Origin: Escherichia phage cardinal
Sequence record: PQ567651.1
Reading direction: 5' to 3' (one strand)
DNA: 64,000 nt
A program made the position numbers and the translations under genes. Positions 20,635-54,932 of this stretch are shown here, piece by piece (positions within the stretch are counted from its first letter, which is position 1; each line of letters opens with the position of its first letter). Below the pieces are notes generated by a model. That model did not search any database. It saw only the letters and a program-made list of their open reading frames with translations, and had not been told where the DNA came from.

Positions 20635-20781
20635 ATGGACGATGTAAGTATTTGTCCTATCTGCGGCGGCACTGGGAATTTTATTGTTAGTATGGAACAA
20701 TTTATTCCTTGTTGGAATTGTAACGGTTTAGGTTTCGTTCATACGGAAGAAAAAGAAGAGGAGGAAGATAATGGGAACTAA
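20635..20781 (+). CDS. small Cys-pair (zinc-ribbon-like) protein
   Basis: 48 aa, CPICGG...CWNCNG; RBS GAGGAG; below track size cutoff. Confidence 0.35.
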   Translation: MDDVSICPICGGTGNFIVSMEQFIPCWNCNGLGFVHTEEKEEEEDNGN

Positions 20782-26582: not shown

Positions 26583-27245
26583 ATGAAGTTTGTACTATAT
26601 CATCGACTTTCTAAGAAGAAACAACAAGGCAACCAGTATGGTATAGAATCACAGGAAGCAGATATTCAACGCTTCCTGGATTCACAAGAAAATTATACTA
26701 TTGTAGGTAGCTTTGCAGAGTTTTATTCGGGTAAAGGCGATTGGAAGCAACGTAGAGAGCTTGTAAAAGCTGTTAATCTTTGCAAAGAAACAGGTGCTAC
26801 ACTTGTTGTTGCTAAGGTTGACCGTCTTGGACGTAACACAGCTTCTGTTGCAACCTTGTTAGAGATGATCAATGTACGAATAGCAACTATGCCCTCCGCT
26901 GAAAATATGATAATAAATATTTTAGCAGTTCTGGCAGAAGAAGAGGCTCGTGCAATATCTGATCGTGTTAAGAAGAGCCTTAAGGTAGCAAAAGCGAAGG
27001 GAACGCTTCTTGGTGCAGCAAACCCTAAATACAAAAGAACAGATTATAAGAAAACGGAAGAAGCAAAACGCTCAAGAGAGTTTGCGCTTTCTTTAAAAGA
27101 TTCTTTAGTTGCATACAGAGCTTGTAAAACGCCATATATGACGATTGCAAAGCATCTGAATGAATCAGGAAAGAGAACTATTCGTGGGAGTTTGTTCGAT
27201 GCCAAAGCGGTACAACGTCTTTGTGCAAAATTGAATATTAAATAA
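26583..27245 (+). CDS. serine recombinase (resolvase/invertase family)
   Basis: YHRLS (catalytic Ser context), VAKVDRLGRN, EEEARAISDRVKKSL motifs. Confidence 0.75.
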   Translation: MKFVLYHRLSKKKQQGNQYGIESQEADIQRFLDSQENYTIVGSFAEFYSGKGDWKQRRELVKAVNLCKETGATLVVAKVDRLGRNTASVATLLEMINVRIATMPSAENMIINILAVLAEEEARAISDRVKKSLKVAKAKGTLLGAANPKYKRTDYKKTEEAKRSREFALSLKDSLVAYRACKTPYMTIAKHLNESGKRTIRGSLFDAKAVQRLCAKLNIK

Positions 27246-38008: not shown

Positions 38009-38203
38009 TCAATAAAAGTTGAAAAAACCTTCAGCATCCAAGCTAACTTTTGCGAAAGTTGGATAAAGCGTGTATATAGCAACTTCTCTGTCTCCATCTT
38101 TAGCTGCTCTCTCAATATACGCGTAGATATTTTGTAAACTCTCCTTTGCTTTGTTAAGTTCTGCGTTTTCTGCCAGTTCTCTCATTTTATCTGCTACAGT
38201 CAT
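38009..38203 (-). CDS. hypothetical protein
   Basis: track ORF. Confidence 0.45.
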   Translation of the reverse strand: MTVADKMRELAENAELNKAKESLQNIYAYIERAAKDGDREVAIYTLYPTFAKVSLDAEGFFNFY

Positions 38204-38472
38204 TTGTCAGTATCCTTTTCAATAAATCCTGTGGTTTTACAAGGCACACATTCATACATCTGTCCAACATCTGCAACTACCCAACCCATTCCATTGCAAT
38301 AAGGACAGATTGTTTTGTTCTCTTTAGCATACACAGCCAGAAGTCTTTCTTCTAGCTTGTTGTAATCAGCAAGAAGAACATAGTCTCCTTCTGGATCTGG
38401 TACAATATCACATTGACCAGCAGCACCTTGGCTGTACACCTCTAAATCATATCGTGTAACCATTATTCCCAC
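38200..38472 (-). CDS. hypothetical protein with two Cys pairs
   Basis: CPYCNG...CVPCK. Confidence 0.5.
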   Translation of the reverse strand: MGIMVTRYDLEVYSQGAAGQCDIVPDPEGDYVLLADYNKLEERLLAVYAKENKTICPYCNGMGWVVADVGQMYECVPCKTTGFIEKDTDK

Positions 38473-38681: not shown

Positions 38682-38888
38682 TTTCTACTCCTCATAGATA
38701 GAATCTATTAAAAACCTGCTATCAATCGGTATAAACAGTTTTACTTTTCGTAAAAAACATGCTACCCTAATCTTATATACCGAGCGATAGCGAGGTAGAG
38801 AATATTCCATGTTATACATGGAAAGAGTATATGTAATGTTACTAACTCTATAACTAACTATATACTCTTTATACCTTACTTACTACTC

Positions 38889-39152
38889 TTATTGAAGTTC
38901 AAAGATATCCCCATCTCCATCATATCCATACTCTAACTCTCCTGTATCATATAATACAATAAAGTCTGTATCATCTTCAATAAAAGATTTAGCATAATCT
39001 ACTAACTCTTCATTATCTTCATACCCTTCCAGGTACTCAATACGACCATTGATACATTTAGCTGCAACAACTCCTGGGCCATTGCTTGGAGTCCACTCAC
39101 TGTATACTCGCATACCTAATTCTTTAATCATTGTTTGTCTCCTCATAATCAA
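38889..39152 (-). CDS. hypothetical protein
   Basis: track ORF. Confidence 0.5.
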   Translation of the reverse strand: MIMRRQTMIKELGMRVYSEWTPSNGPGVVAAKCINGRIEYLEGYEDNEELVDYAKSFIEDDTDFIVLYDTGELEYGYDGDGDIFELQ

Positions 39153-39348
39153 TGTAGTTGTAACACTTATTCTTTAAGAAATCTTCTGCTTGTTTCTTGT
39201 GTTTTAGAATGATGCACTTCTCTTTATTCTGTTCTACATCATTATGTAGATTGTATAAGTTAGATGCACCATACAGAATACCAATTAACAAAAGCAAAAA
39301 GATTGCTGTTGATAACAAAAATTGTTGCAACTTGTTTACAGACTTCAT
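39124..39348 (-). CDS. small membrane-anchored protein (paralog of 44134..44343)
   Basis: N-terminal TM helix; C-terminal KCIILKHKKQAEDFLKNKCYNYIDYEE. Confidence 0.5.
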   Translation of the reverse strand: MKSVNKLQQFLLSTAIFLLLLIGILYGASNLYNLHNDVEQNKEKCIILKHKKQAEDFLKNKCYNYIDYEETNND

Positions 39349-39402
39349 AAACCCTCCTTATCGTTAGTACACATTGATACTAACAAGAAGTTAAGATCGT
39401 GT

Positions 39403-39575
39403 CAACATCTTTGTGTTAATTTTATCCACTGTTCACATTCTTCTTTTGTGTCGTACTCTACAGGCTTTCCTGTATCATTTCCACAACCATCTCCGAACGT
39501 AGCCCACCAGGAGAATAGAAAACAAGTTTCTCTTACTCTCCACTTATTGGCATAAGGTACAACATAATAACTCAT
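39403..39575 (-). CDS. small hypothetical protein
   Basis: 57 aa ORF below track cutoff; fills gap on coding strand. Confidence 0.3.
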
Positions 39576-39823
39576 AAGATTGTGATCCTTAGTTCATTTT
39601 CTAAGGTATGTCTCACACATTCTTTGAAATTGTTATCAATATAAACAACACGTACTCCATGAGGTGTTTCTTTACATTCAAACACATTATATACAGTGTC
39701 AGATAAGACATGTTGTACGTTTACTTGTCCAATACCATCTTTAACCACAACCATCACTTTCAGTAAACTTGTATGGTTTTTAACTTCATCTTCTACGTAT
39801 GCTACAACATCTTTGATATTCAT
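39572..39823 (-). CDS. hypothetical protein
   Basis: track ORF. Confidence 0.5.
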   Translation of the reverse strand: MNIKDVVAYVEDEVKNHTSLLKVMVVVKDGIGQVNVQHVLSDTVYNVFECKETPHGVRVVYIDNNFKECVRHTLENELRITIL

Positions 39824-40119
39824 TGTTTCTCCTGTTTAAGTACGATATAAGATTGACGAGATTTCCATCGTCCTATCTTAACAAGGCAAATAATGCCTCT
39901 CTTTAACAGATATTTCATATCTTCGTCATAAGCTGTTTGCAATTGCCACTTACTGTTAACAGGAAGAGAACCATGTACCCTTAAATGAGCTAACAGATAC
40001 TTTCTTCGCTCCTTCCCATAAGGCAGATATTGCCATTCTTTCTTTGATACAGGTTCATGTACTTTACGATGCCAGTAAGTAAGGTGTCTTCTTTTATGTA
40101 AACCCCTATTCCTTACCAT
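39820..40119 (-). CDS. hypothetical basic protein
   Basis: track ORF. Confidence 0.5.
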   Translation of the reverse strand: MVRNRGLHKRRHLTYWHRKVHEPVSKKEWQYLPYGKERRKYLLAHLRVHGSLPVNSKWQLQTAYDEDMKYLLKRGIICLVKIGRWKSRQSYIVLKQEKQ

Positions 40120-40358
40120 TATACCTCTACCTCCGTTACCCCAGGATCTCTAGTCCAGGTGTAGTAGAGCATACCATCTTCTTTCAGTGCAATGCGATCA
40201 CTTTCGTCTCGAAGATATAGGTCACATACTACGCGCAGTTGCGGATCTGATCCGAGTAGTTCTGAAACAATAAGGTCATCACCGCTCATACGAGCAACAA
40301 TCACTGCATATTGACCAGTATCTGCATCAAAAATTGGTTGTCCGATGTTTAATTGCAT
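40119..40358 (-). CDS. hypothetical protein
   Basis: track ORF. Confidence 0.5.
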   Translation of the reverse strand: MQLNIGQPIFDADTGQYAVIVARMSGDDLIVSELLGSDPQLRVVCDLYLRDESDRIALKEDGMLYYTWTRDPGVTEVEV

Positions 40359-40543
40359 TGTGTTGTCTCCTTATTCAGTACGTTGTTTTGTGCTGCGCAC
40401 CAGCACTCATAAAAACCTTGGGTTAATGGCATAGTGTAGTTTCCAGAAGGATCTCTTTCGAGATCCCCATCTGCATAACAACCACTACCTAAGAACCATT
40501 TTTCAAAATCGGATAAATCATCCCAATCTACACTATTTTTCAT
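40349..40543 (-). CDS. hypothetical protein
   Basis: internal ATG of track ORF 40349..40630, avoids overlap. Confidence 0.4.
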   Translation of the reverse strand: MKNSVDWDDLSDFEKWFLGSGCYADGDLERDPSGNYTMPLTQGFYECWCAAQNNVLNKETTQCN

Positions 40544-40544
40544 A

Positions 40545-41003
40545 TTATACTGTCTTATATCCGACAATAGCAACCTGATTCGTAGGCTTCCAACGACCAA
40601 TAATCTCACCAGAAATCTCTGTGCTACCATTTATGTATTGGTAATGGGTATCATCATGATTAACCCATGCCATAACGTCAAGAGTAGGGGTTTTGACGTG
40701 TACCAGTAGTGTAGCCCATTCTGGGGCTTCTTTAATATCCACAGAATCTTGCCAATCTTCTTCGATGTGCCAAGTAGGTTCGCCATCAACATCTGTAACG
40801 AAGAAACGAGCTTTCATACGTTTAAAGAACATTGGTGTATACCCATGATCGCACTCTGGGATAAAATCATCCATCGTTTCGTCATAGGTGAAATATTGTC
40901 CATCTTTATAATGAAAAGATGCACAAAACAGTTCATTACGAGCAGGAACATGCCATACAGCTACAAAACTACGACCATGTGGATAATGTTTAACCTCTTT
41001 CAT
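40545..41003 (-). CDS. hypothetical protein
   Basis: track ORF. Confidence 0.5.
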   Translation of the reverse strand: MKEVKHYPHGRSFVAVWHVPARNELFCASFHYKDGQYFTYDETMDDFIPECDHGYTPMFFKRMKARFFVTDVDGEPTWHIEEDWQDSVDIKEAPEWATLLVHVKTPTLDVMAWVNHDDTHYQYINGSTEISGEIIGRWKPTNQVAIVGYKTV

Positions 41004-41018
41004 AGTTTTCTCCTTATT

Positions 41019-41363
41019 TTATTCAAAAGAATCAATTCGATTTTGTTCTATGTCAATTGCAGCTTCTAAGATAAGTTTTAATGCTTCAAATTGCAAGTCT
41101 TCCTCTAAAGAGAAGACATATAAAACAACGGATTCCAAGTAAGACAGCACTCCAAGACTAAGCGTTGCAATCTCTACTCCTGCATCGGAGAAACCTGTTT
41201 GCAAAACTTCTTTGAAGAAACGTTGTTTATCAACAATAGCAGATAAGATAAGCGTTTTACGCTCGTCTGCTGATCGTACTGTGCAGTATATGTTGCTAAA
41301 AGAATCTAGCCACATTTTGATCATACCTTGTCGGTACATAAGGATTTCAATATCAGCCAACAT
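41019..41363 (-). CDS. hypothetical protein
   Basis: ATG with GGAGAG RBS within track ORF 41019..41462. Confidence 0.45.
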   Translation of the reverse strand: MLADIEILMYRQGMIKMWLDSFSNIYCTVRSADERKTLILSAIVDKQRFFKEVLQTGFSDAGVEIATLSLGVLSYLESVVLYVFSLEEDLQFEALKLILEAAIDIEQNRIDSFE

Positions 41364-41364
41364 A

Positions 41365-41532
41365 TTATCTCTCCTCTGGAGAAAGATTTGCATTAATTTG
41401 ATAGTAAAAATCAAAATCCTTGTGTTGATCGCACCATTCTTGAGCTTCTTTAAATGACGCAAATTGCATAGTGAATGTTGCCATCCACGTGTTCATACTT
41501 TTATTGAACTTGTCGATAAAAAATGTTTGCAT
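41365..41532 (-). CDS. hypothetical protein
   Basis: ATG with GGGAGG RBS within track ORF. Confidence 0.45.
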   Translation of the reverse strand: MQTFFIDKFNKSMNTWMATFTMQFASFKEAQEWCDQHKDFDFYYQINANLSPEER

Positions 41533-41750
41533 TATTCCTCCCATTTTATCCAAAGGCAGTATTCTGGAACATAAACCTCCTTCCCTTTGTTATTTACAAA
41601 GGTGTACTCCACAAATTCTGCTTTATATGTTTTGTTATATTCCTGTGCTGCTGGCACAGGACATTTTGTAATGCGCGTTTCAGTCCAACGGCGGTGTATA
41701 ACCGCCTTGTTCTTTGGATCAAACGGATGTATAAAGTGTGTTTTACTCAT
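41532..41750 (-). CDS. hypothetical protein
   Basis: track ORF, internal ATG. Confidence 0.45.
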   Translation of the reverse strand: MSKTHFIHPFDPKNKAVIHRRWTETRITKCPVPAAQEYNKTYKAEFVEYTFVNNKGKEVYVPEYCLWIKWEE

Positions 41751-42147
41751 GCGCCATTTCCACAAGATTTTTAATCATAGTTTCTCGACAGAGATTCCAC
41801 ATGTCCGAAGCAACCATAGCAGCATATTCATCGGGGTTGGATTCTGGTAAAATCTCTTTAACTGCTTCTGGTGTCGGGTTGCACATAGCAGGTAGTGCTT
41901 TAAGTGCATCTTCAATAGAGAGCTTTTTACCTTCACTGTAAATAACTTCGTAAGCATAGTCATTTACATCTTCTGGAATATCTTGATCCAGGTAACGCAC
42001 AGTAGAGTTATGCATTTTGTTCATAGCTTCACTAACACCAGCGCCACAAAGCTGTGCAACTTCTTTAGAGATACAGTCACAAATAACAACTTCGTAAGGC
42101 TTTCCACCATAATACTGCGCATTATATTTGATTTTAACAGACCACAT
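41743..42147 (-). CDS. hypothetical protein
   Basis: track ORF. Confidence 0.5.
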   Translation of the reverse strand: MWSVKIKYNAQYYGGKPYEVVICDCISKEVAQLCGAGVSEAMNKMHNSTVRYLDQDIPEDVNDYAYEVIYSEGKKLSIEDALKALPAMCNPTPEAVKEILPESNPDEYAAMVASDMWNLCRETMIKNLVEMAHE

Positions 42148-42157
42148 ATTACTCTCC

Positions 42158-42844
42158 TTATTTAACGTGTTTTAGCAATTCAATGTTGGCAGAATAGTTT
42201 TCACCACAATTAGTAACGCTCAACAGTGACCATTTACAAGAGAATACACCTTTTAGATGATCTGGAACACACATCAGCGGAACATAAACTGTTTCTGAAT
42301 CTTGTGTTTGCTCTGTTTTGTTAACATTGCAACAAAATGGCAATACATCATCATGAATCATTTTACATTCACTCAAATTATCTAACATATGTGAAACTTG
42401 TTCTGAAGTTTCAAACATTTGTGCTTCACAAGCCAGCGCACCAACCACTTGATAAGCCTCTCCACACAAATCTTCTAGTTCTAAAATACGTTCAGACATA
42501 GCTTCGATGATTGCTGATCGTGCTTTCACCTTAGTTTCTGCTTCTTTAATTTTCTTCTCAAGTTCTGTAATGTACTTCAGTAGTGCACTAACAACATCTG
42601 GAGTATTTTCTTGATCATCTTGGGAAATTTTTACCAAAGAAGAAGCTGCTTTGCAGCGCACTTTAGGCTCTACGTAGCCAAAAGTCATATTTTCCGAAGA
42701 AGATTGTTGTGAAAACCAGTGTTTGTTCGAAGAAAACACAGGTTCATCTTCAAACCAGAACACATCTCCAGTGATATCACGAGCCATGAAATTTGCATTG
42801 TCTGGAACTTCGTAACGATGCCCTTCAAACATAATCTCTTTCAT
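42158..42844 (-). CDS. hypothetical protein
   Basis: track ORF. Confidence 0.5.
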   Translation of the reverse strand: MKEIMFEGHRYEVPDNANFMARDITGDVFWFEDEPVFSSNKHWFSQQSSSENMTFGYVEPKVRCKAASSLVKISQDDQENTPDVVSALLKYITELEKKIKEAETKVKARSAIIEAMSERILELEDLCGEAYQVVGALACEAQMFETSEQVSHMLDNLSECKMIHDDVLPFCCNVNKTEQTQDSETVYVPLMCVPDHLKGVFSCKWSLLSVTNCGENYSANIELLKHVK

Positions 42845-43254
42845 TACACATCCTCCATTTGGAACATCTTCTTGTGGTTAGAATAGATCTGTTTGAAAAT
42901 CTTGTCAAGGCGTTCATATGATTCTTTATGCTCTTGTTTCCATCCATGATTTCGGATTTTATCTGCCAGGTCATAAGCCTCGCATAAAACTTTGGCAAAG
43001 TTGGTATTATCTATAGCACAAGCCTCAAAACCTTGAACTAAACCCTCTACATCATACCACGTATAGTCAGAGTCACTAGGAGTCTTTCCTGCATCGGCTA
43101 AACGTTGCCTCACCCATTCGATACGTTTTTCATTTAAATGGCACTTACCTTCTCTACACTCTTGTTCTAATTCTTCTTTAGATTCGTTGAATGGGTGAAG
43201 GACAGGAAGTTCTGCTTTTTGCAATTGCTCCAGGTATTCACCTACAATGCGCAT
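42844..43254 (-). CDS. hypothetical protein
   Basis: track ORF. Confidence 0.5.
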   Translation of the reverse strand: MRIVGEYLEQLQKAELPVLHPFNESKEELEQECREGKCHLNEKRIEWVRQRLADAGKTPSDSDYTWYDVEGLVQGFEACAIDNTNFAKVLCEAYDLADKIRNHGWKQEHKESYERLDKIFKQIYSNHKKMFQMEDV

Positions 43255-43258
43255 AGCT

Positions 43259-43426
43259 TCACTGTGTACACTTTCTGCCTGTGTGCCAATAACGGAAGAT
43301 ACTTTCTGTTAAACAGATGTTTTTACTAAACATCGCATTGTCTTTAACATTCGATCTATTAACCCAGTCTAAGTAATATACATAAAACTGCAATAATTCA
43401 TAACTGCTTGGTATAACTTTACTCAT
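43259..43426 (-). CDS. small hypothetical protein
   Basis: 55 aa ORF with AAGGAGA RBS, below track cutoff. Confidence 0.35.
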   Translation of the reverse strand: MSKVIPSSYELLQFYVYYLDWVNRSNVKDNAMFSKNICLTESIFRYWHTGRKCTQ

Positions 43427-43435
43427 AACCTCTCC

Positions 43436-43603
43436 TTAATTGTGCAAAATGTTATCGATCAGTATGACTAATAGTACGAGGATAGAAGGGAGTAGGAATA
43501 GAAATCTTAACATTATGTGATGCGTGTGAGAAGCGGCTTTAGCGCCAGCCGCCAATAAGCCTACTAATCCTACAATAAAGAGCAGTTGTTCAGGGACACC
43601 CAT
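43436..43603 (-). CDS. small hydrophobic membrane protein
   Basis: 55 aa ORF, start overlaps upstream stop (TAATATG). Confidence 0.3.
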   Translation of the reverse strand: MGVPEQLLFIVGLVGLLAAGAKAASHTHHIMLRFLFLLPSILVLLVILIDNILHN

Positions 43604-43607
43604 ATTA

Positions 43608-43829
43608 TGGAACACTTGGATACTCCGTAAGTTCGGCTAATAGTTGGATATGTGGACACGTGAATTGTTGTCCTGGATAGCGTGAGCTAATATCATCCAG
43701 TAAAGCAATCACAGCATTGTGCAATGCTTCGTAATCTTCATAATACACCATCTCTCCATTAGGATCTTCAACAATATCACAGTGGCAAGCGTGAGCAGTA
43801 CACGCATCCCATTCCAGACGTTTTACCAT
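43608..43829 (-). CDS. hypothetical protein
   Basis: track ORF. Confidence 0.5.
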
Positions 43830-43875
43830 AAACCCTCCTATTTATATATCAAGAAACACAAAAGAATAACATCTA

Positions 43876-44124
43876 TCACCAAACCGTTACTACTCCGGTA
43901 CGTAGCGTCTCTTCATGTCCCCAAATATCCGCTTCAATTGTAATTACAACCCACTCCGTGCTCCACTGAATACCAGTGATCTCTGTGAGATGTGCAGCTT
44001 CACGTTGTAGTGAGGCTGTGTCTGTAAGAGACGCACGTAAAGCATCCAATTCTTGTTCAATTTTGGTACGTTCTTCTTCGGTAATCGGTGTACCAACACG
44101 ATCAAAGGTAAAAATATCTAACAT
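43876..44124 (-). CDS. hypothetical protein
   Basis: track ORF. Confidence 0.5.
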   Translation of the reverse strand: MLDIFTFDRVGTPITEEERTKIEQELDALRASLTDTASLQREAAHLTEITGIQWSTEWVVITIEADIWGHEETLRTGVVTVW

Positions 44125-44133
44125 ACTTCCCTC

Positions 44134-44343
44134 CTAATTATAATTCACATAGCGCCCACAATCCTGTTCAAGAAATTTTTCAGCATCCCTTTGGTGCTTT
44201 AACACGATGCACTGTTCTTTTTTAGCTTCACTTTCACGAGCTTCTCTTGCCATATACTCACCTAAACGAATGATACTAGAGAATAACACGTATGCAAGAA
44301 TAAGACAAACAGTGATTGCACAGAAAGTTTTAAACTTAACCAT
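44134..44343 (-). CDS. small membrane-anchored protein (paralog of 39124..39348)
   Basis: ATG after GGAGG; TM helix; EQCIVLKHQRDAEKFLEQDCGRYVNY. Confidence 0.5.
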   Translation of the reverse strand: MVKFKTFCAITVCLILAYVLFSSIIRLGEYMAREARESEAKKEQCIVLKHQRDAEKFLEQDCGRYVNYN

Positions 44344-44686
44344 TGTATTCCTCCATATCACGAATACGATCAATCACCCATTGTACACGTTCTTTATTAA
44401 GGTGTGCAATGCCTAGTTCTGTTTCCGTAAAGTAGTGCGAGAAATCCGTATTAAACGGATGTAAATGGTTCAAACCCGCTTTCTTAAATTGTTCCTTCAT
44501 TTCCTCTCGTACAGAGGATTGGAGCTTTGATACATTCTCAACATCTTTTATCCAAGCAATATTGTACAAGAAGTCTACAAGACACGTGCAAAGACCATAA
44601 TGCTTTTTGCTAAAGTTTGTATCTTCTTGTTCTAACCACCACTCATAAAATTGTAGCAAATAGGAGCTGCTTTTCATGTTACACAC
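44336..44686 (-). CDS. hypothetical protein
   Basis: track ORF. Confidence 0.5.
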   Translation of the reverse strand: MCNMKSSSYLLQFYEWWLEQEDTNFSKKHYGLCTCLVDFLYNIAWIKDVENVSKLQSSVREEMKEQFKKAGLNHLHPFNTDFSHYFTETELGIAHLNKERVQWVIDRIRDMEEYNG

Positions 44687-44699
44687 TTTATTATTCTCC

Positions 44700-44999
44700 T
44701 TAATACCAGTCTACGATCACTGAATCTACAAAGCCCTCTTTGGTGTTTAAAGCATACACCTTACTAAGCCCATGCTCTCGTAGTGCTTCCATAGCAAGAT
44801 CAATCAAATCAACTTGTCGTTTCTTTGCTTGTTCATTTTTTGGATAGTCATCCAAACCGAAAACAGACGGTTTAAATGCTTTGGAGTATTTGCCAGTTTT
44901 AGCCTGATCATAACAGTCCTGAATAATTTCCTCAATAGGAAACCATAAACCTTCTCCACTTTGCTTTGCAATACAGCGCAGTTTTTCTGTAATAGTCAT
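44700..44999 (-). CDS. hypothetical protein
   Basis: track ORF. Confidence 0.5.
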   Translation of the reverse strand: MTITEKLRCIAKQSGEGLWFPIEEIIQDCYDQAKTGKYSKAFKPSVFGLDDYPKNEQAKKRQVDLIDLAMEALREHGLSKVYALNTKEGFVDSVIVDWY

Positions 45000-45208
45000 T
45001 CTTCCTCTCCTTTCAATTTACACTCAAAGATACCATTCTTAATGTTATCTGTCAAATAAAGGCTATCTTCTATCTCTTCTTTTGTATACACATAAGCCTC
45101 CTTTTCCACGTCTGTCAGACCTTGCATCGGAGCTAGTAGCCACCAGCCCCGCCAGTCAAACATAGGAGACTTATCAGATACACGAAGAATGTATCTGTCA
45201 TTACACAT
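44996..45208 (-). CDS. hypothetical protein
   Basis: track ORF. Confidence 0.45.
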   Translation of the reverse strand: MCNDRYILRVSDKSPMFDWRGWWLLAPMQGLTDVEKEAYVYTKEEIEDSLYLTDNIKNGIFECKLKGEEE

Positions 45209-45866: not shown

Positions 45867-46082
45867 TTAAACAGTATATTCGTGTGGAAGGAAAACATAG
45901 TCTTCTCCTTCAACAACATCAACTACTTCCCACTTCCAGCCAGGTACTTGGCTCATTGTCTTGAATGACACATAAGCAACTCCGCTGTAAGCGATATCGG
46001 CATCTAACATAAGAGGGAAAGCAACGTGTGTCAATCCCAGATAACCACAATTATTTTCAATACACACCTGAATGCTTTTCAT
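45867..46082 (-). CDS. hypothetical protein
   Basis: internal ATG of track ORF 45867..46127 just after upstream stop. Confidence 0.45.
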   Translation of the reverse strand: MKSIQVCIENNCGYLGLTHVAFPLMLDADIAYSGVAYVSFKTMSQVPGWKWEVVDVVEGEDYVFLPHEYTV

Positions 46083-49136: not shown

Positions 49137-49196
49137 GCGGGAAACCACTTCCCGCCTTACGTGATACATCTTAGTATAAGGGCGATCCGGTGTCAA
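49137..49196 (-). promoter_or_regulatory. promoter + stem-loop cassette (PeSL-like)
   Basis: minus: TTGACA-17-TAAGAT-GTATCAC..GGCGGGAAGTGGTTTCCCGC. Confidence 0.55.
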
Positions 49197-49324
49197 TAGG
49201 TAGAATTGTAAAGATTTGATAGTTTATTTCTTTGATGTTTTGTTATTTGATAGGTGGAAGCTATCAATATATAATAAGATCGTCCGGTGATTATCTTCCC
49301 CTGCTCCCAGGTGCCGCCCGTTCA

Positions 49325-49365
49325 ATAAGCATAACAAAAAACAGGACAAAAACAAGCCCTGTTTT
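49325..49365 (-). terminator. rho-independent terminator after 49373..49576
   Basis: minus: ACAGG-loop-CCTGT followed by TTTTTTGTT. Confidence 0.5.
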
Positions 49366-49372
49366 GTAAAGA

Positions 49373-49576
49373 TTAGATGATCTGCATATCCTCCACGATA
49401 ATTTCTAATTTCCAAACAAGATGATCTAAGCTCCCTGATAAAAATGATTCCGATACATAACCGCCATCTGACACCGTAGCAAGGATCTCGCCATTTGCTT
49501 GCTCTTTGATTTGAACATCCAGGCGGTTAGCCTTTGCTTTATTCAGGACGGCGATCAGGCGGTTAGCTGTAGTCAT
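49373..49576 (-). CDS. hypothetical protein
   Basis: track ORF. Confidence 0.5.
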   Translation of the reverse strand: MTTANRLIAVLNKAKANRLDVQIKEQANGEILATVSDGGYVSESFLSGSLDHLVWKLEIIVEDMQII

Positions 49577-49598
49577 GGTGTTTTCCTTCCAGTTGTGA

Positions 49599-49654
49599 GC
49601 GGCACTATTGCCGCCCTACGAAATACATTCTACCCGATTTATAATTGTTGTCAA
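49599..49654 (-). promoter_or_regulatory. promoter + stem-loop cassette (PeSL-like)
   Basis: minus: TTGACA-16-TAGAAT...GGCGGCAATAGTGCCGC. Confidence 0.5.
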
Positions 49655-49655
49655 A

Positions 49656-49925
49656 CTATTTTTTCAAGCTCGACCAGTCAAAACACGGGGCGATCTCGTT
49701 AAAACTTGTACCATGTAAAGCACATAATTTTTTAGCAATAGCCGCCGTAACCTGGCGTTGTACGCGCGGATCTGCTACTGATTGGAGAAAATAGGCGGTT
49801 TTATATGTGATCATGCTTTCGCCTGTTTCCTTGTTAACGTGGTGCACGGTTTTAGCCTTATCATCTTTTACCAGGGTGTAACCGGATTCGATGGCCTTGA
49901 TTGCAACGTCCAAAGATATTTTCAT
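49656..49925 (-). CDS. hypothetical protein
   Basis: track ORF. Confidence 0.5.
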   Translation of the reverse strand: MKISLDVAIKAIESGYTLVKDDKAKTVHHVNKETGESMITYKTAYFLQSVADPRVQRQVTAAIAKKLCALHGTSFNEIAPCFDWSSLKK

Positions 49926-49945
49926 GATTTACCTCTTTATTGACG

Positions 49946-49965
49946 GCGGGGAATACTCCCCCGCC
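49946..49965 (-). promoter_or_regulatory. leader stem-loop ggcgggg/ccccgcc
   Basis: GC hairpin of cassette family upstream of 49656..49925; no clear -35. Confidence 0.4.
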
Positions 49966-49972
49966 TTATTAA

Positions 49973-50143
49973 TTACTCTTCATCGTCGCCGTTATAGTAT
50001 TCAATGCCGTTTTCATCGGTTACAGTAATGTTAACGCCACCGATAGCAACACGATCACGGGCAAACGTCATGGCTTCATTTAAATCTTCAGACCAAAAAA
50101 TATTGTGACCTTTGCGCGATACATAAAACATAGTTGGGATCAT
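49973..50143 (-). CDS. small hypothetical protein
   Basis: 57 aa ORF filling gap between cassettes. Confidence 0.35.
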   Translation of the reverse strand: MIPTMFYVSRKGHNIFWSEDLNEAMTFARDRVAIGGVNITVTDENGIEYYNGDDEE

Positions 50144-50165
50144 GATTTGTTTCTCTTCTGTTGTG

Positions 50166-50226
50166 AGCGGGAAACCATTTCCCGCCCTATGTGATAAACT
50201 TTACTACGTTGTTTGCCTAGTGTCAA
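50166..50226 (-). promoter_or_regulatory. promoter + stem-loop cassette (PeSL-like)
   Basis: plus: gcgggaaaccatttcccgccctatgtgata...tgtcaa. Confidence 0.5.
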
Positions 50227-50227
50227 A

Positions 50228-50512
50228 TTATTTTTTAATGTTTTGCCCTACAAAATTGATCACTTCCTTAAGCTGTTTCTCAGTCATGATCGTGCCTGGT
50301 AATTCTTCTTTGATTTCTTCCGGTAGATAGATATTACCGCGCCAGGTTAATAAACAACCGTTTTGATCTTCGCAGATAGAATAAGAGAAGATCCACTCAT
50401 TATCATTCTCAAGCTCCCAAAAGCACAAAAAATCTTCTTTCCCTAAATTTTCAACGGTTAAACATAATCCGCGACGTGCTGCATAGTTGGAAAGTGCTTT
50501 TGTGATCTTCAT
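50228..50512 (-). CDS. hypothetical protein
   Basis: track ORF. Confidence 0.5.
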   Translation of the reverse strand: MKITKALSNYAARRGLCLTVENLGKEDFLCFWELENDNEWIFSYSICEDQNGCLLTWRGNIYLPEEIKEELPGTIMTEKQLKEVINFVGQNIKK

Positions 50513-50531
50513 AGCTTATCTCTTCTGTTAA

Positions 50532-50594
50532 GGCGGGGAAACCATTTCCCCGCTCTATGAGATACAATATACTATCTGTTAGGTGTGCTGTCAA
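50532..50594 (-). promoter_or_regulatory. promoter + stem-loop cassette (PeSL-like)
   Basis: plus: ggcggggaaaccatttccccgc...tgtcaa. Confidence 0.5.
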
Positions 50595-50918
50595 TCAATA
50601 ATCTTTAAGATTTTCTACATTTACAAAAGTGCGTTTATTTTCTAAGTTTTCGCCGTACCATTGCCCCATGTTGATTTCTGCGGTGCGCAACCAGGACATG
50701 CCGCGCTCTATCTTTTTACTTGCAATCTCGATCCGGCTTTTGCATAGTGCTTTCGCTTGCAATGTAAAAACACTATTGCCCTGTAATGCTTCCAGGTCAT
50801 CATGTGCAAGGCGATACTCTTTAAAGCCTGATTCTATCATTTCAATAGCATCAAGTAAACGCGCGCGATGATAGAAAAAATCAGAGTTATCCAAATAAAC
50901 ACCGATCACAGATTTCAT
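50595..50918 (-). CDS. hypothetical protein
   Basis: track ORF, internal ATG start. Confidence 0.45.
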   Translation of the reverse strand: MKSVIGVYLDNSDFFYHRARLLDAIEMIESGFKEYRLAHDDLEALQGNSVFTLQAKALCKSRIEIASKKIERGMSWLRTAEINMGQWYGENLENKRTFVNVENLKDY

Positions 50919-51247
50919 AATTTTACCCTTTTGTTTGCGGCCTTTGCCGTTTTCAAGATATAGTTTAAAGCATAACAAAAAATTGTCAAGCCTTTAAAGC
51001 GTACAACTATAAAACCTATTAAAACACAATGTATAACAACATGGCTATAGTAGCAATACAACATAAAGCCATGCTTGTTTTCCTTCCTTCCTCGTATGCT
51101 GGATTTATTACGCTATATTGTACGGGAATAATTTTCATGCTGTTTCCTTAATGTCTTAAAACGTGGTTTACAATAGAAACAAGCATACAGAAGAAAAAAG
51201 ATCCTGTCAATAAGATACCGAAAAATAAATGTAAATAGGGCATGGTT

Positions 51248-51550
51248 TTACTCCTTAAAAAAATCATTGACAATTAAACTGATAACGCCCAGCACCAGAT
51301 CACCAGGTAGTGCCGCGCTTTCGTTGTTGCTTGTTTGCACTTCCTCACTAGTACCAGCACGATAGATTGCATGGTAAGCAATAGTATAATAACCTTTCGT
51401 TATTTCTTTAAGATTAATGATTAGCACGTTATTTGTTTCATCTTGAAACAATTTAGCGGTGATAGTATTGTTTTCTTTTACACTATCGACTTTTATTGAT
51501 GGATCATTTACACCAGAAAAAAGAAAAAACGTTTTAGCTATGCCGTTCAT
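51248..51550 (-). CDS. hypothetical protein
   Basis: track ORF. Confidence 0.5.
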   Translation of the reverse strand: MNGIAKTFFLFSGVNDPSIKVDSVKENNTITAKLFQDETNNVLIINLKEITKGYYTIAYHAIYRAGTSEEVQTSNNESAALPGDLVLGVISLIVNDFFKE

Positions 51551-51597
51551 GTAGTTCTCCTTTGTTGTGTGTATCTTATAACGTGCTTTCTATGTTG

Positions 51598-51999
51598 TCA
51601 ATCTTTTATCTCGGTGCATTTTGCCAGGGTATACGTTGCAAGTGCTGACACTAGTTTTTCATTGCTACGATCTGCGGCTGTACTGTGTACTTTTTGAATA
51701 CTTTTTAACCACGGCGTAAAATTTTGAGTAGTCAGCACACTGGTAATAATTTCACATGGCACATCTTCATTTAAGCCGTTAACAATAGATTTATCTATTT
51801 TTGCCGTTAGTTGTGTAACAGCACCATAAGCGATCATGTGTGAATCCTCCATGATTTCATCGGGGATCGCATTATTAATAAGCATGACGTTTTCCATTGC
51901 ATCAACGGCGCTTAATTCTGCTACTGTGGAGGATATCGCCGCGCTAGATGTTCCAACCATGCCAAAAGAGATTAAACCAGCGATCAATAATTTTTTCAT
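51598..51999 (-). CDS. secreted protein with signal peptide
   Basis: MKKLLIAGLISFGMVGTSSAA signal-peptide-like. Confidence 0.5.
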   Translation of the reverse strand: MKKLLIAGLISFGMVGTSSAAISSTVAELSAVDAMENVMLINNAIPDEIMEDSHMIAYGAVTQLTAKIDKSIVNGLNEDVPCEIITSVLTTQNFTPWLKSIQKVHSTAADRSNEKLVSALATYTLAKCTEIKD

Positions 52000-52007
52000 T
52001 TCTTGCC

Positions 52008-52190
52008 TCATATATGTTTTATTGAGATTATATTGTCACTATATACAACGTTTTTCAACGTGTCAATAAAAATCTTATTGCCTTCAATCCCCAGGATCAC
52101 GCCGCTAGTTATGAAGCCATATTGATCACGATATCGGGCGCATAACCTTTGCCCCTGGGCTAGTGCCTTGCTTATTTCGTCTAATTTCAT
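52008..52190 (-). CDS. hypothetical protein
   Basis: track ORF. Confidence 0.45.
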   Translation of the reverse strand: MKLDEISKALAQGQRLCARYRDQYGFITSGVILGIEGNKIFIDTLKNVVYSDNIISIKHI

Positions 52191-52282
52191 TTTTAAAGCT
52201 CCTGTAAAGCCGTCTAACGTTGATTTATAGGCTTATCCTGGCGTTACCATTGCCTATGGGTAACAAGCCTCTATATAAGCTA

Positions 52283-52310
52283 AAAGGGCGCTTATTGCGC
52301 CCTTTTTTGT
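52283..52310. terminator. bidirectional terminator hairpin gggcgc-ttatt-gcgccc
   Basis: aaaagggcgcttattgcgcccttttttg. Confidence 0.55.
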
Positions 52311-52447
52311 TATTCGTTCCAGTATCTTTTTGTGCTGCGATCTCTTTTTGTTTTGTTCCGCTTGTCGCCTTTTTTGGTGATCTCTTCGTTCCAATTTTTA
52401 CGCGCCTTGCTGCGGTTGAATTTTTCGATCTGCTGTGATGCGTTCAT
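52310..52447 (-). CDS. small basic protein
   Basis: 45 aa ORF with AAGAGGAAG RBS. Confidence 0.3.
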   Translation of the reverse strand: MNASQQIEKFNRSKARKNWNEEITKKGDKRNKTKRDRSTKRYWNE

Positions 52448-52462
52448 GTTTCTTCCTCTTAA

Positions 52463-52822
52463 TTACGCCACGTTATGCTGTTTTGCCAGGATTACGATCA
52501 TGCTTGCAATATATAACCAATAATTTTCCCGCTCACGGGTAACGGTTGTTTCTTTGCTTGTTTCTTTTATGTACTTCCATTCAATTAACAAGTGATCGAT
52601 CTCGTTATAATCAAAAGCAATATTGATTTCTGACGGTAAACCTTGTAACCAGGAGGCTATCGCCTTGATCATGTTGTGATTGTAACGTTTTTGATTATCG
52701 GGATACCAGTATTCAGATGTAAAACGGCGCATCAGTTCGGTGATCTTTTCTTTTTCTGTTGTAGTACCCTCAAAAGAAATAGCCGACACAATGTAAGTTT
52801 TAATTGCTTTTACTGATTTCAT
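52463..52822 (-). CDS. hypothetical protein
   Basis: track ORF. Confidence 0.5.
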   Translation of the reverse strand: MKSVKAIKTYIVSAISFEGTTTEKEKITELMRRFTSEYWYPDNQKRYNHNMIKAIASWLQGLPSEINIAFDYNEIDHLLIEWKYIKETSKETTVTRERENYWLYIASMIVILAKQHNVA

Positions 52823-52842
52823 AATCTTATCTCTTTATTGTT

Positions 52843-52901
52843 GGCGGGAAACCATTCCCCGCCGTTGTTGTTACTTTACTTATAAATGATGCTACTGTCA
52901 A
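52843..52901 (-). promoter_or_regulatory. promoter + stem-loop cassette (PeSL-like)
   Basis: plus: ggcgggaaaccattccccgcc...tgtcaa. Confidence 0.5.
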
Positions 52902-52908
52902 ACGGATA

Positions 52909-53079
52909 TTATTTGTTTTTTAACGTTAATGTTCCCAGCTTATCAGCGTGACGCAGACCAGGAAAGATCCATTTTCCTGATTCATCTTTTACCGGGGCTT
53001 TAAGCGTAGCGCCCAGGTTGGCGGCATTAACTTTACGTGCAACGTTGCGAGCGGCTTCACGGGTAGCGAAAGTGATCAT
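52909..53079 (-). CDS. small hypothetical protein
   Basis: 56 aa ORF with GAAGAGGAAA RBS. Confidence 0.35.
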   Translation of the reverse strand: MITFATREAARNVARKVNAANLGATLKAPVKDESGKWIFPGLRHADKLGTLTLKNK

Positions 53080-53103
53080 GATGTTTTCCTCTTCTCTTTG
53101 TTA

Positions 53104-53188
53104 GGCGGTGGGCTATTCCACCGCCTTGATGAATACAGTTTACTTTATTTTTGCAGTATTGCAAGCGGTTTTATGAAATAAATGTCAA
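53104..53188 (-). promoter_or_regulatory. stem-loop + TTGACA element (cassette variant)
   Basis: plus: ggcggtgggctattccaccgcc...tgtcaa. Confidence 0.4.
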
Positions 53189-53386
53189 AGTAAAATCATA
53201 ATCTTTTGACAGTTTATATTGCACCTTGTTACCGTATATGTCACCTTTACGTAAAGATCCGCGAATACCTATTACATCCTTTACATCTTTAAGATTTTTC
53301 ACGCCTGTAATGTCTTTATTGAAATGATCGTGATCAGAAAATAAAACCTGCTTTGCATTTTTTAACAGTGTGCGGATATTAGCCAT
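53171..53386 (-). CDS. hypothetical protein
   Basis: track ORF. Confidence 0.5.
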   Translation of the reverse strand: MANIRTLLKNAKQVLFSDHDHFNKDITGVKNLKDVKDVIGIRGSLRKGDIYGNKVQYKLSKDYDFTLTFIS

Positions 53387-53407
53387 TTGATAATCTCTCT
53401 TACTAGG

Positions 53408-53464
53408 GGCGGCACTATTGCCGCCCTATGCATTACATTTTACTGATTTTAGTTATCTTGTCAA
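53408..53464 (-). promoter_or_regulatory. promoter + stem-loop cassette (PeSL-like)
   Basis: plus: ggcggcactattgccgcc...tgtcaa. Confidence 0.5.
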
Positions 53465-53472
53465 TATTATTT

Positions 53473-53700
53473 TTAGTTTAATTGATCCAGGCACAACAAG
53501 CGATCAACATTCAGATCGGTTAGGCTAATCGTTGGCACCTGGTAGGATTCGATGTACTCAACGCTCGACCATTGCCCGAAGTTAGCGACCGCCCAGCTAT
53601 TCAAGGAAGAGTGAAGATCATCCCCTTTCTTCTCGGTGATAACTGCTACTACCTGGGAGCTTCCAACCGTACCGGATACGCGAACAATAACGATAGCCAT
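53473..53700 (-). CDS. hypothetical protein
   Basis: track ORF. Confidence 0.5.
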   Translation of the reverse strand: MAIVIVRVSGTVGSSQVVAVITEKKGDDLHSSLNSWAVANFGQWSSVEYIESYQVPTISLTDLNVDRLLCLDQLN

Positions 53701-53722
53701 AATGATAACCTTTCTTTGATTT

Positions 53723-53782
53723 GGCGGGAAACCATTTCCCGCCCTATGTGATATATCTTACACTAATTTAAAACGTTGTCAA
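53723..53782 (-). promoter_or_regulatory. promoter + stem-loop cassette (PeSL-like)
   Basis: plus: ggcgggaaaccatttcccgccctatgtgatatatctta...tgtcaa. Confidence 0.55.
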
Positions 53783-53877
53783 ATTATTTTCTATTTCTTC
53801 CGTAATAGCCCAATTTATGATCTAAGCTAAAACGTTTTGTGAGATAGGTCGAACGATGTTTCATTTTTATGTCTCCT

Positions 53878-54117
53878 TTACATTCCAACCATAGCGGCAC
53901 GGATCGCGGTTTTACTGAACTTGAATCCGTCTGGCGTTTTATCTTGATCCATACTTTCAAGAAATAACATCATATCCCGCGCTGCGTCATTCTTATTGGT
54001 GTTAGCTGCGATAAATTCACGCGCAAGATTATAAAAACCTTCATCGTTGTTGATCCAAAGGCTTACATTCCAATGAGTTTTGTTTTTGTGACCTAAGAAC
54101 ATTTTAGATTTAGCCAT
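53878..54117 (-). CDS. hypothetical protein
   Basis: track ORF. Confidence 0.5.
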   Translation of the reverse strand: MAKSKMFLGHKNKTHWNVSLWINNDEGFYNLAREFIAANTNKNDAARDMMLFLESMDQDKTPDGFKFSKTAIRAAMVGM

Positions 54118-54141
54118 GATGTTAATCTCTTTTTCAGTGAG

Positions 54142-54199
54142 GCGGGAACTATTCCCGCTCTCGATATAAGTATTATATGCTTTTTATTCGTGCTGTCAA
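54142..54199 (-). promoter_or_regulatory. promoter + stem-loop cassette (PeSL-like)
   Basis: plus: gcgggaactattcccgc...tgtcaa. Confidence 0.5.
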
Positions 54200-54205
54200 T
54201 GCTTT

Positions 54206-54571: not shown

Positions 54572-54666
54572 AGTCTTTAATCTCTTTTGATTAGTTAGGA
54601 GTATTCCCGATAAAAGTTATTATGCTTGTACTATCGTTCGTTGTCAATAGCACAAGACTAAAACTT

Positions 54667-54848: not shown

Positions 54849-54932
54849 TTTTATTCCTTAGTAATGTTTCAATCTATATAAGCATTATAGCTTACTGATT
54901 TCAGGTGTCAAGTGATTTTTTATTTCACCTTA

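Follow-up and report, generated by a model that had tools for sequence, protein, structure and literature searches.

Two small genes in this phage, here called A and B, almost certainly form a genuine paralogous family of single-pass membrane proteins. The source is a phi92-like Justusliebigvirus of E. coli, and the window is the whole 64,000-nucleotide stretch analysed. The first-pass annotation had located the two open reading frames correctly, but the strand needs correcting: both genes are on the minus strand, and translation of the plus strand is full of stops. The features of the two genes and their surroundings are listed here, with the basis for each in brackets.

38805..38823, minus strand: weak terminator-like hairpin downstream of gp023, 8-pair stem with 3 G-C pairs and a poor T-tail (consensus match only)
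38889..39131, minus strand: gp023 orthologue, 80 aa, acidic, phrog_23012 (ORF listing, phi92 comparison)
39124..39348, minus strand: gene A, orthologue of phi92 gp022, 74 aa, phrog_23204 (ORF listing)
39145..39222, minus strand: conserved C-terminal mini-domain of A, E43-x-C45...C62...Y68 (family conservation, Cys spacing)
39268..39330, minus strand: hydrophobic transmembrane or signal-anchor segment of A, residues 7–27 (Kyte-Doolittle mean 2.41, best 19-residue window)
39353..39359, minus strand: ribosome-binding site AAGGAGG of A (sequence; annotated ribosome-binding site in phi92)
39377..39405, minus strand: sigma-70-type promoter-like site TTGACA-17-(TG)TAGTAT, directly upstream of A (pattern match)
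42844..43426, minus strand: gp010 orthologue, a gp006 paralogue, split into ORFs of 55 and 136 aa (BLASTP, phrog_27059)
44134..44343, minus strand: gene B, phi92 gp007 type, bas61_0153, 69 aa, phrog_15662 (ORF listing)
44140..44217, minus strand: conserved C-terminal mini-domain of B, E43, C45 ... C62 ... Y68 (conservation and AlphaFold)
44269..44328, minus strand: transmembrane segment of B, residues 6–25 (Kyte-Doolittle mean 2.55; uncharged span 6–25)
44336..44686, minus strand: gp006-like gene, 116 aa, phrog_2510 (its stop overlaps the start of B, AATGGTTAA)

The product of gene A (MKSVNKLQQF...EETNND, 74 aa) is 96% identical to Phi92_gp022. In relatives, gene B (MVKFKTFCAI...RYVNYN, 69 aa) is annotated from the ATG at 44343, served by a GGAGG ribosome-binding site, in preference to the longer TTG reading frame. 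Both genes have strong ribosome-binding sites and are annotated in all relatives examined. Gene A matches phrog_23204 at E 1e-49 and cross-hits phrog_15662 at E 1.5e-8; gene B matches phrog_15662 at E 9.5e-33 and cross-hits phrog_23204 at E 6.9e-7. Each protein has one 19-residue window above a mean Kyte-Doolittle value of 2.4, in agreement with the single N-terminal hydrophobic helix first described for both. The phi92 record annotates residues 1–27 of the A orthologue as a SignalP 3.0 signal peptide.

The paralogy that the first-pass annotation had proposed is borne out by BLASTP (E 4e-11, 32% identity across 66 aa), by a six-frame search and by a shuffle test. Searching A against 1350 six-frame segments of the window returned B at E 2.5e-8, with the next match at 0.45. 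The Smith-Waterman score of A against B is 93, compared with 24.1±4.7 for shuffled sequences, and none of 20,000 shuffles reached it. All of the similarity lies in the C-terminal ~30 residues, where 15 of 30 positions are identical (EQNKEKCIILKHKKQAEDFLKNKCYNYIDY versus EAKKEQCIVLKHQRDAEKFLEQDCGRYVNY). The annotation had also asked whether pairwise alignment would confine the similarity to low-complexity residues; the match is significant and is not so confined, as the identical residues include C, H, F, L, and Y. No similarity was detectable between the N-terminal hydrophobic segments (score 18; shuffles 19.4), and the membrane helices are alike in architecture only. Core DNA identity between A and B is 59%, third positions match at 12 of 30, and the duplication is old, with anciently diverged copies. 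The two are distinct subtypes, each with relatives in other phages. Gene B, which is syntenic with phAPEC8 gp232, is the ancestral copy. A family HMM found no further copies in the 64-kb window.

Both copies are found in all 55 Justusliebigvirus records, and gene A is intact in 55 phage records. Public assemblies include ±1 frameshift variants of gene B at an A6 run, among them one on a 147.6-kb contig. These may be sequencing errors, or else B may not be essential. Purifying selection acts on both genes, with dN/dS values of 0.25 for A (0.19 in the C-terminal half) and 0.31 for B (0.14 in the C-terminal half).

The family is very narrow and phage-only. An exhaustive profile search of 1.84e9 representatives returned only 18 clusters, all of 54–83 aa except for a 131-aa chimera. 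In each of the 24 members analysed, a single hydrophobic span is followed by exactly two cysteines at a spacing of 16 (Cys-X16-Cys). The layout is a very short N-terminal stub, a membrane helix of ~20 residues, a charged helical linker, and a C-terminal mini-domain of ~27 residues with the motif E-x-C-[IV]-[IV]-x-K-[HY]-x-x-x-A-x-x-F-L-x-x-x-C-x-x-[YLW]-[VIT]-x-[YW]. E43, C45, L58, and C62 are invariant in the 24 members, and K49, A54, and F57 nearly so. From the E. coli phages to a Pseudomonas phage, the C-terminal domain stays ~50–60% identical while the membrane helix and linker are replaced, which suggests that the domain, and not the anchor, carries specificity. Searches of Pfam, PHROGs, NCBIfam, PADLOC, and the PDB gave no match of A or B to a characterised family. 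We found no literature on either gene.

We used AlphaFold to model B from a 22-sequence alignment (pLDDT 87.6). The model has a helix at residues 2–50, which includes the transmembrane segment, a turn at 51–53, a helix at 54–59, and a short turn at 62–64; that is, a membrane helix predicted to run on into a small helix-turn-helix. C45 is close to the end of the long helix and C62 directly follows the short one. A first run with a shallow alignment gave a single straight helix. Superposed on the B model, the BFVD prediction for an A orthologue reaches a TM score of 0.93. The cysteine pair probably forms a periplasmic disulfide hairpin. Hints at this topology are the invariance of the Cys pair and the charges near the membrane helix: the N-terminal flanks carry 0–2 positive charges and almost no negative ones, the net charge of the C-terminal parts is close to zero, and in several members an acidic residue immediately follows the helix. 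The charge pattern does not settle the matter, however, since the B protein has an Arg right after its helix.

The genomic setting of A and B looks early, as the first-pass annotation had suggested. In phage UAB_1, the left terminal repeat is 3.2 and 7.9 kb away from the two genes, which belong to a run of ~75 small co-oriented genes. Matches to TTGACA-N17-TAnnnT number 21 in the window, where 1.57 would be expected, and all those within 39–55 kb are on the gene strand. The 75 bp upstream of A, promoter-like site included, are essentially invariant in nine genomes, as is the ribosome-binding site. Gene A is probably co-transcribed and translationally coupled with gp023, since gp023 begins, with its ATG, 8 nt before A ends, and the hairpin at 38805..38823 is a possible end of this unit. 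Klebsiella phage phi1_175008 has a single family member and, three genes further downstream, a gp023-like gene.

We propose, tentatively and as a chain that falls somewhat short of probable, that A and B are early, periplasm-facing binders of an envelope component. Host RNA polymerase would make both early. The N-terminus would sit in the cytoplasm and the C-terminal domain in the periplasm, where the two cysteines would form a disulfide stapling the helix-turn-helix hairpin. The products would then act as membrane-tethered periplasmic ligands (A possibly released) that bind and block their target. As a leading guess, that target belongs to the entry apparatus of related phages and is conserved in the lineage. 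The effect would be superinfection exclusion of the kind seen with T4 Spackle or Imm, and each of the two paralogues would deal with different variants of the target. Exclusion is the leading guess for the specific function, though rather unlikely in itself. The first-pass annotation had suggested superinfection exclusion or envelope takeover, and no observation made here speaks against either.

T4 Spackle (Sp, gp61.3), the product of an early gene, is exported to the periplasm, where this small helical protein with a single disulfide binds and blocks the gp5 tail lysozyme of the incoming phage (PMC7677548). It resembles the A/B model in its early gene, N-terminal hydrophobic export signal, small helical periplasmic part, and single disulfide, without any match in sequence or fold. 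Once its signal has been cleaved, Spackle is a soluble multi-helix bundle of 75 aa, whereas the conserved A/B domain has only ~27 residues and, unlike Spackle, probably stays tethered, as B has no plausible cleavage site and that of A is ambiguous. T4 Imm, a small early membrane protein, cooperates with Spackle to exclude superinfecting phages (PMC7677548). Imm and Spackle, as a pair of small envelope proteins with separate genes, recall A and B, yet Imm has no homology to these (Pfam, PHROGs, E ≤ 10). We know of no equivalent of the Cys-X16-Cys domain in Imm. More generally, no homology of A or B to Spackle, Imm, RI, holins, or any characterised family was detected, and at E ≤ 10 neither Pfam nor PHROGs gave a match to an annotated exclusion family.

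An unlikely competitor is that A and B are host-takeover effectors, in which the periplasmic mini-domain or the membrane helix binds and modulates a conserved host inner-membrane machine such as the divisome (FtsQLB/FtsWI), a PBP, a sensor kinase, or a protease. The models here are SPO1 Gp56 acting on FtsL, and MgrB and SafA acting on PhoQ. The many small early genes that make up the long block around A and B are of a host-takeover type. The domain is kept in phages that infect E. coli, Klebsiella, and Pseudomonas, which would fit a host-conserved target equally well. MgrB and SafA, at under 70 aa, resemble A and B as modelled in their cytoplasmic N-terminus, single membrane helix, and short periplasmic tail, which in MgrB has two conserved cysteines essential for function (PMC8404706). 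However, MgrB and SafA are bacterial regulators of the sensor kinase PhoQ, of host and not phage origin, and unrelated to A/B in sequence. The MgrB cysteines are 10 residues apart (C28, C39) and not 16, and its membrane helix is itself needed for function, whereas that of the A/B family is freely replaced. SPO1 Gp56 is a small phage protein from an early host-takeover module that blocks division through the single-pass FtsL (PMC8892312). It differs in coming from a Gram-positive phage with no periplasmic disulfide context. Pfam and PHROG scans showed no homology of A/B to MgrB, SafA, or Gp56, and the family is limited to one phage lineage, while a useful host inhibitor might spread wider.

A role in lysis timing appears improbable. 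Here, A and B would either be small holins or act like antiholins, using the periplasmic domain to bind the holin of the same phage, as T4 RI does with holin T. A target within the lineage would explain the lineage-restricted family, and phi92 gp022 is annotated with a signal peptide or anchor. The RI periplasmic domain binds holin, and the RI gene lies apart from the endolysin gene (PMC6832632 and references therein). However, that domain has ~70 aa and no homology to A/B, and no holin or antiholin family was matched in Pfam and PHROG scans. There is no annotated lysis gene within 14 kb on either side of A/B, and the near-end position and sigma-70-type promoters argue for the earliest gene class. 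We know of no holin partner or report of lysis inhibition for phi92-like phages.

An inverted topology is quite doubtful. The C-terminal domain would then be cytoplasmic, and the two proteins would be membrane anchors recruiting a soluble phage partner, the gp006-like product of the overlapping upstream gene for B and gp023, encoded by the overlapping downstream gene, for A. The start of B overlaps the gp006-like stop in Justusliebigvirus, phAPEC8 (gp233/gp232), and a further contig (L014); in Pseudomonas phage PsgM04F, the homologue is flanked by gp006-like genes. There is little charge bias from one side of the helix to the other, and translocation is possible for N-termini that are very short; the N-flanks, though, are net positive where charged. 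A cysteine pair that is invariant and fixed in spacing, with no other metal ligands, would be more usual in an oxidised periplasmic domain. The gp006-like family is also multi-copy, at two to six places per genome, and is present in phages that gave no tblastn match to a family member, so the adjacency may reflect abundance and shared synteny. Finally, very short ORFs with hydrophobic segments can draw spurious matches (here weak Pfam matches to CD20 and COX14), but chance similarity or non-coding ORFs is a negligible prospect, refuted by the shuffles, the PHROG cross-hits, the same positions kept in 24 sequences from several phage genera, dN/dS far under 1, the ribosome-binding sites, and the annotation in relatives.

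As context only for A and B, the gp010 orthologue between them is split by a 2-bp deletion within an (AC)n run. Its two pieces cover positions 1–54 and 59–194 of phrog_27059, and the 136-aa piece matches the gp006-like protein at a BLASTP E value of 2.7e-8.

This DNA comes from a phi92-like Justusliebigvirus phage of Escherichia. The 6 kb from 38800 to 44800, which contain both genes of interest, share 98.6% identity with phages Antha and Eryne, and matches to this stretch at 95–99% identity come from 55 records. Four or five GenBank records named "Campylobacter jejuni phage" (MG065645.1, Campylobacter phage A145, and similar) are also 95–99% identical in DNA to E. coli phi92-like phages over the region, and these labels probably reflect a wrong host or contaminated samples. 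The two genes, here called A and B, and two features next to them are listed below.

Features of the A and B loci
39124..39348, minus strand: A, 74 aa, orthologue of Phi92_gp022
44134..44343, minus strand: B, 69 aa, corresponding to phi92 gp007 and EmilieFrey bas61_0153
43876..44124, minus strand: extra ORF after B (82 aa, phrog_17168); the affected 3' end of B is 44134..44170
39377-39405, minus strand: promoter-like site with an extended -10, directly upstream of A

Plus-strand translations at both loci are riddled with stops. Each gene is preceded by a strong ribosome-binding site, AAGGAGG in the case of A and GGAGG in that of B.

The first-pass annotation described A and B as paralogous membrane proteins with a similar C-terminal motif, and our comparison confirms and sharpens this observation. 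BLASTP aligns the two at 32% identity over 66 aa (E = 4e-11). With A as the query, a phmmer search of the full set of 1350 six-frame segments from the window found B at 2.5e-8, with the next match at 0.45, and the local alignment score of 93 was reached by none of 20,000 shuffles (24.1 ± 4.7). The signal is wholly C-terminal, where 15 of 30 residues are identical. As these include Cys, His, Phe, Leu, and Tyr, the similarity is not confined to low-complexity residues. Hydropathy shows a single N-terminal hydrophobic helix in both proteins, as it shows one span in all 24 family members. The hydrophobic segments of A and B have no detectable relatedness (score of 18 versus 19.4 for shuffles), and only the architecture is common to them. 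The core DNA is 59% identical with third positions matching at 12 of 30 codons; the split is old. A family HMM built here recovers B at 1.5e-31 and A at 4.1e-29 and found no third copy in the 64-kb window.

A matches phrog_23204 (E = 1e-49) and phrog_15662 (E = 1.5e-8), B matches the same PHROGs in the opposite order (phrog_15662, E = 9.5e-33; phrog_23204, E = 6.9e-7), and each protein thus cross-matches the other's family; both PHROGs are annotated as unknown function. When 1.84 billion representative proteins were searched exhaustively with an HMMER profile, only 18 matched at E ≤ 1e-3, with lengths of 54–83 aa, a range that includes A and B, save for one of 131 aa. This exception (P0041), a chimeric assembly or a recombinant, consists of A residues 1–43 joined to 88 aa of unrelated sequence. 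Using tblastn against 50,697 phage records, we found both copies in 55 of 55 Justusliebigvirus records. Phapecoctavirus carries one B-like copy (phAPEC8 gp232), some of the unclassified Klebsiella and E. coli phages in Stephanstirmvirinae carry a single copy each, and Pseudomonas phage PsgM04F carries one. A word-index search returned almost only Justusliebigvirus proteins, and an IMG/VR scan, seeded with the B-type alignment as the diverse family alignment was too variable, gave only two near-identical loci. This is a real, narrow, and uncharacterized family, represented here by a well-supported but ordinary duplicated gene in a phage early region.

Four positions never vary in the 24-member alignment (E43, C45, L58, and C62) and three hardly vary (K49, A54, and F57); both A and B conform. 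Every member has one hydrophobic span (mean Kyte-Doolittle 2.0–3.3) and exactly two cysteines downstream of it, 16 residues apart. The membrane helix and linker are freely exchanged across the family while the domain is retained; for example, two database proteins (P0035 and P0036) carry a C-terminal domain close to that of B joined to a different N-terminus. Selection was estimated from nine genomes by pooled Nei-Gojobori dN/dS, which is 0.25 for A and 0.31 for B, and 0.19 and 0.14 for the respective C-terminal halves. Very few synonymous differences underlie the high value for the N-terminal part of B, and no meaning should be read into it.

AlphaFold2 modeled B from a 22-sequence alignment with a pLDDT of 87.6. 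The model has a helix at residues 2–50 comprising the membrane helix, the linker, and CIVLKH, followed by a turn (51–53), a second helix (54–59), and a short turn (62–64), so that C45 would lie on one arm and C62 on the other arm of a small hairpin. The same shape is seen in the BFVD models for an A orthologue (TM 0.93) and for a third member of the family, from phage ESCO13 (TM 0.76). An earlier run on A with nine sequences gave a single helix at pLDDT 69, which is uninformative and was superseded by the run on B. The N-terminal flanks of family members carry 0–2 positive charges and almost no negative ones, and the C-terminal parts are highly charged but net neutral. Given this charge distribution, the invariant cysteine pair, and the AlphaFold model, the proteins are more likely than not oriented N-in/C-out with a disulfide in the periplasm. 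The phi92 record lists a SignalP 3.0 signal peptide at residues 1–27 of gp022 (A) and none on gp007 (B). However, the hydrophobic region of A is ~19–21 residues, the length of a membrane anchor, so A may be either cleaved or anchored. If A is cleaved, it would yield a soluble periplasmic peptide of ~45 aa while B stays tethered.

Gene order marks B as the ancestral, syntenic copy. The phAPEC8 order gp237, gp233, gp232 corresponds to gp005, gp006, B in the window, with extra genes separating gp237 and gp233, and phAPEC8 gp233 and gp232 are adjacent and overlapping. A belongs to a distinct subtype; its nearest outside relative is P0039, a protein from a 151.5-kb metagenomic phage contig with 40% identity and the common motifs GILY..S and FLKNKCY. 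The pair therefore stems from either an old duplication or a second acquisition. We also considered a larger segmental duplication, as a gp008/gp025 pair parallels the B/A gene order, but the similarity is a short N-terminal motif (E = 3e-4) and the intervening genes differ, so this is not established. The motif spans ~44 aa of the gp008-like (43605..43829, minus strand) and gp025-like (38200..38472, minus strand) products. Separately, gp008 weakly matches a Lar-like restriction-alleviation PHROG (E = 7.7e-4), and the zinc-finger part of gp025 resembles a short ORF at 20635..20781 on the plus strand (E = 2e-4).

B occurs with two C-terminal tails. In the window, EmilieFrey, and PD06, the protein is 69 aa, ends in ...EQDCGRYVNYN, and is followed by the extra 82-aa ORF. 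In phi92, PHB05, BME3, UAB_1, and EC_OE_11, it is 72 aa, ends in ...ALDCNRYVSYQMY(E/K), and lacks the ORF. The two alleles suggest a recombination junction inside the end of the gene. B also contains an A6 run (44218..44223, minus strand; codons K41-K42), where variants in public assemblies (P0031-P0034) are frameshifted by ±1 and cut off right after ...EAKK; one of them sits on a contig of 147.6 kb. The variants reflect either sequencing errors in the homopolymer or genuine loss or phase variation.

Both genes lie in a run of ~75 small same-strand genes that diverges from an opposite-strand block of larger genes, including methyltransferases, a recombinase, and a sirtuin. The annotated left direct terminal repeat of Salmonella phage UAB_1 covers 1-343, and the starts of B and A in that genome are at 3157 and 7865, respectively. 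A generic promoter scan of the window showed no enrichment (34 sites versus 34.1 expected), and enrichment appeared only with the stricter pattern TTGACA-N17-TAnnnT, which occurs 21 times versus 1.57 ± 1.26 expected. Between 39 and 55 kb, all 12 matches fall on the gene strand. The matches in the window run in the direction of the local genes, an arrangement that points to densely packed host-type promoters among the small genes. Examples are found on the minus strand at 39377-39405, 42880-42908, 45027-45055, 46006-46034, and 49168-54989. The 75 bp preceding A show essentially no variation across nine genomes, though coding synonymous divergence is ~0.10. The A stop codon overlaps the gp023 start, with a weak terminator-like hairpin downstream of gp023; A-gp023 and gp005-gp006-B are predicted to form transcription units.

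The B start codon overlaps the stop of a gp006-like gene, and the same overlapping pair is found in phAPEC8 and in a further contig (L014), whose upstream gene is a double-domain version of 213 aa. The gp006-like family is multi-copy, with 475 places spread over 180 phage records, and some of the phages that contain it gave no tblastn match to the A/B family. The linkage to B is therefore suggestive rather than compelling. A word-index search for the gp006-like protein returned one cluster.

A and B belong to none of the families with which we compared them: Spackle, Imm, RI, MgrB, and Gp56. PHROG and Pfam scans gave only families of unknown function or sub-threshold noise, and NCBIfam and PADLOC scans (the latter at E ≤ 1) gave nothing. 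The Pfam matches to CD20, ATP-synt_E, SecD-TM1, COX14, and RBR all fell below curated cut-offs and were driven by the membrane helix or linker. Foldseek found no matches in the PDB. A PDB sequence profile search returned no Spackle chain at E ≤ 10, nor at E ≤ 1 with the 22-sequence alignment, and no MgrB family match was found in Pfam or NCBIfam. A C-type lectin resemblance through the EDCV...WND..C region was rejected: L-selectin was the sole lectin chain matched (19 bits, E of about 0.007-0.01), the match needs a two-residue gap so that the cysteine spacing differs, and the B model is helical, which makes this a short Cys-motif coincidence. Our literature search turned up no work on the two genes, and neither transcriptome nor essentiality data for phi92-like phages.

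By architecture only, the closest functional analogues are T4 Spackle, an early protein that is small and helical, is exported to the periplasm, carries one disulfide, and inhibits the tail lysozyme (PMC7677548); T4 Imm; the T4 RI antiholin (PMC6832632); MgrB, a small single-pass bacterial regulator that inhibits PhoQ and has two essential periplasmic cysteines (PMC8404706); and SPO1 Gp56, which acts on FtsL (PMC8892312). The A/B family varies the familiar theme of small early phage membrane proteins. Our analysis shows homology, architecture, conservation, and genomic setting, and the functional steps beyond these are inferred. A and B would be made early and anchored in the inner membrane, with disulfide-stapled mini-domains facing the periplasm. 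We tentatively propose that these domains bind and block an envelope component, a chain from early expression to binding that may hold but falls short of probable. The interpretation in the first-pass annotation, superinfection exclusion or host-envelope takeover, is plausible. A lineage-conserved phage component is a possible target, in which case related superinfecting phages would be excluded; we slightly favor it because the family does not extend beyond a single phage lineage, and yet phages with different hosts keep its domain conserved. A conserved host target is a doubtful alternative. Control of lysis timing, for which RI offers an architectural precedent, is unlikely: A and B match no holin or antiholin profile in Pfam, PHROGs, or the PDB profile search, and the annotation of phage EmilieFrey shows no endolysin, holin, or spanin within ±14 kb, although the missing linkage is weak evidence, as T4 rI is likewise unlinked to its endolysin gene (PMC6832632). 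An inverted topology in which A and B recruit the gp006-like protein or gp023 to the membrane would suit the gene overlaps, but it runs against the charge distribution and cysteine pair and is improbable.

Returning to exclusion of related phages, the proteins matched no annotated exclusion family, T4 Imm or other (Pfam and PHROGs at E ≤ 10, PADLOC at E ≤ 1). It is conceivable, if rather unlikely, that they form a previously unrecognized class of superinfection-exclusion or entry-blocking proteins in phi92/phAPEC8-like phages (Stephanstirmvirinae). Here, tethered, disulfide-stapled mini-domains of ~27 residues would act in the periplasm by binding some conserved element of the machinery with which the incoming phage penetrates the cell, and two diverged paralogues would protect Justusliebigvirus against two classes of relatives. 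If true, this reading would bear on mutual exclusion when phages of the group share one preparation. The domains would then be among the smallest periplasmic effectors known in phages and a handle on how the phi92-like and phAPEC8-like phages, whose host range is notably broad, protect or remodel the infected-cell envelope. The family is tiny and simple, with an exchangeable anchor and a 27-residue domain with one putative disulfide, which makes it easily tested.

Several neighboring genes have features of their own. The gp006-like (44336..44686, minus strand) and gp010-like (42844..43426, minus strand) genes are paralogues (BLASTP E = 2.7e-8) of a family without annotated function (phrog_2510/27059) that occupies 2–6 places per Stephanstirmvirinae genome and is present in phages of Salmonella, Erwinia, and Rhizobium as well. 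Contig L014 has three such genes, one of them the tandem double-domain 213-aa form. The phi92 gp010 orthologue (194 aa, phrog_27059) is split in the window into ORFs of 55 and 136 aa by a 2-bp deletion in an (AC)n run between ~43267 and 43268, which reads GTGTACACACAGTG in phi92 and EmilieFrey and GTGTACACAGTG in the window. The split marks either a pseudogene or an error of sequencing. The small gp009 (43436..43615, minus strand; 55–59 aa) looks hydrophobic with two apparent membrane segments, and the phi92 record notes a weak signal peptide and "bad prodigal statistics" for it. Relatives also annotate a 70-aa "membrane protein" further along the block, so the early region encodes several small membrane proteins. 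Lastly, a DNA invertase/site-specific recombinase gene at 26583..27245 on the plus strand matches, at E = 2e-72, the gene directly downstream of the family member in PsgM04F (L005:2604-3278); the window homologue lies ~12 kb from the family genes on the opposite strand.
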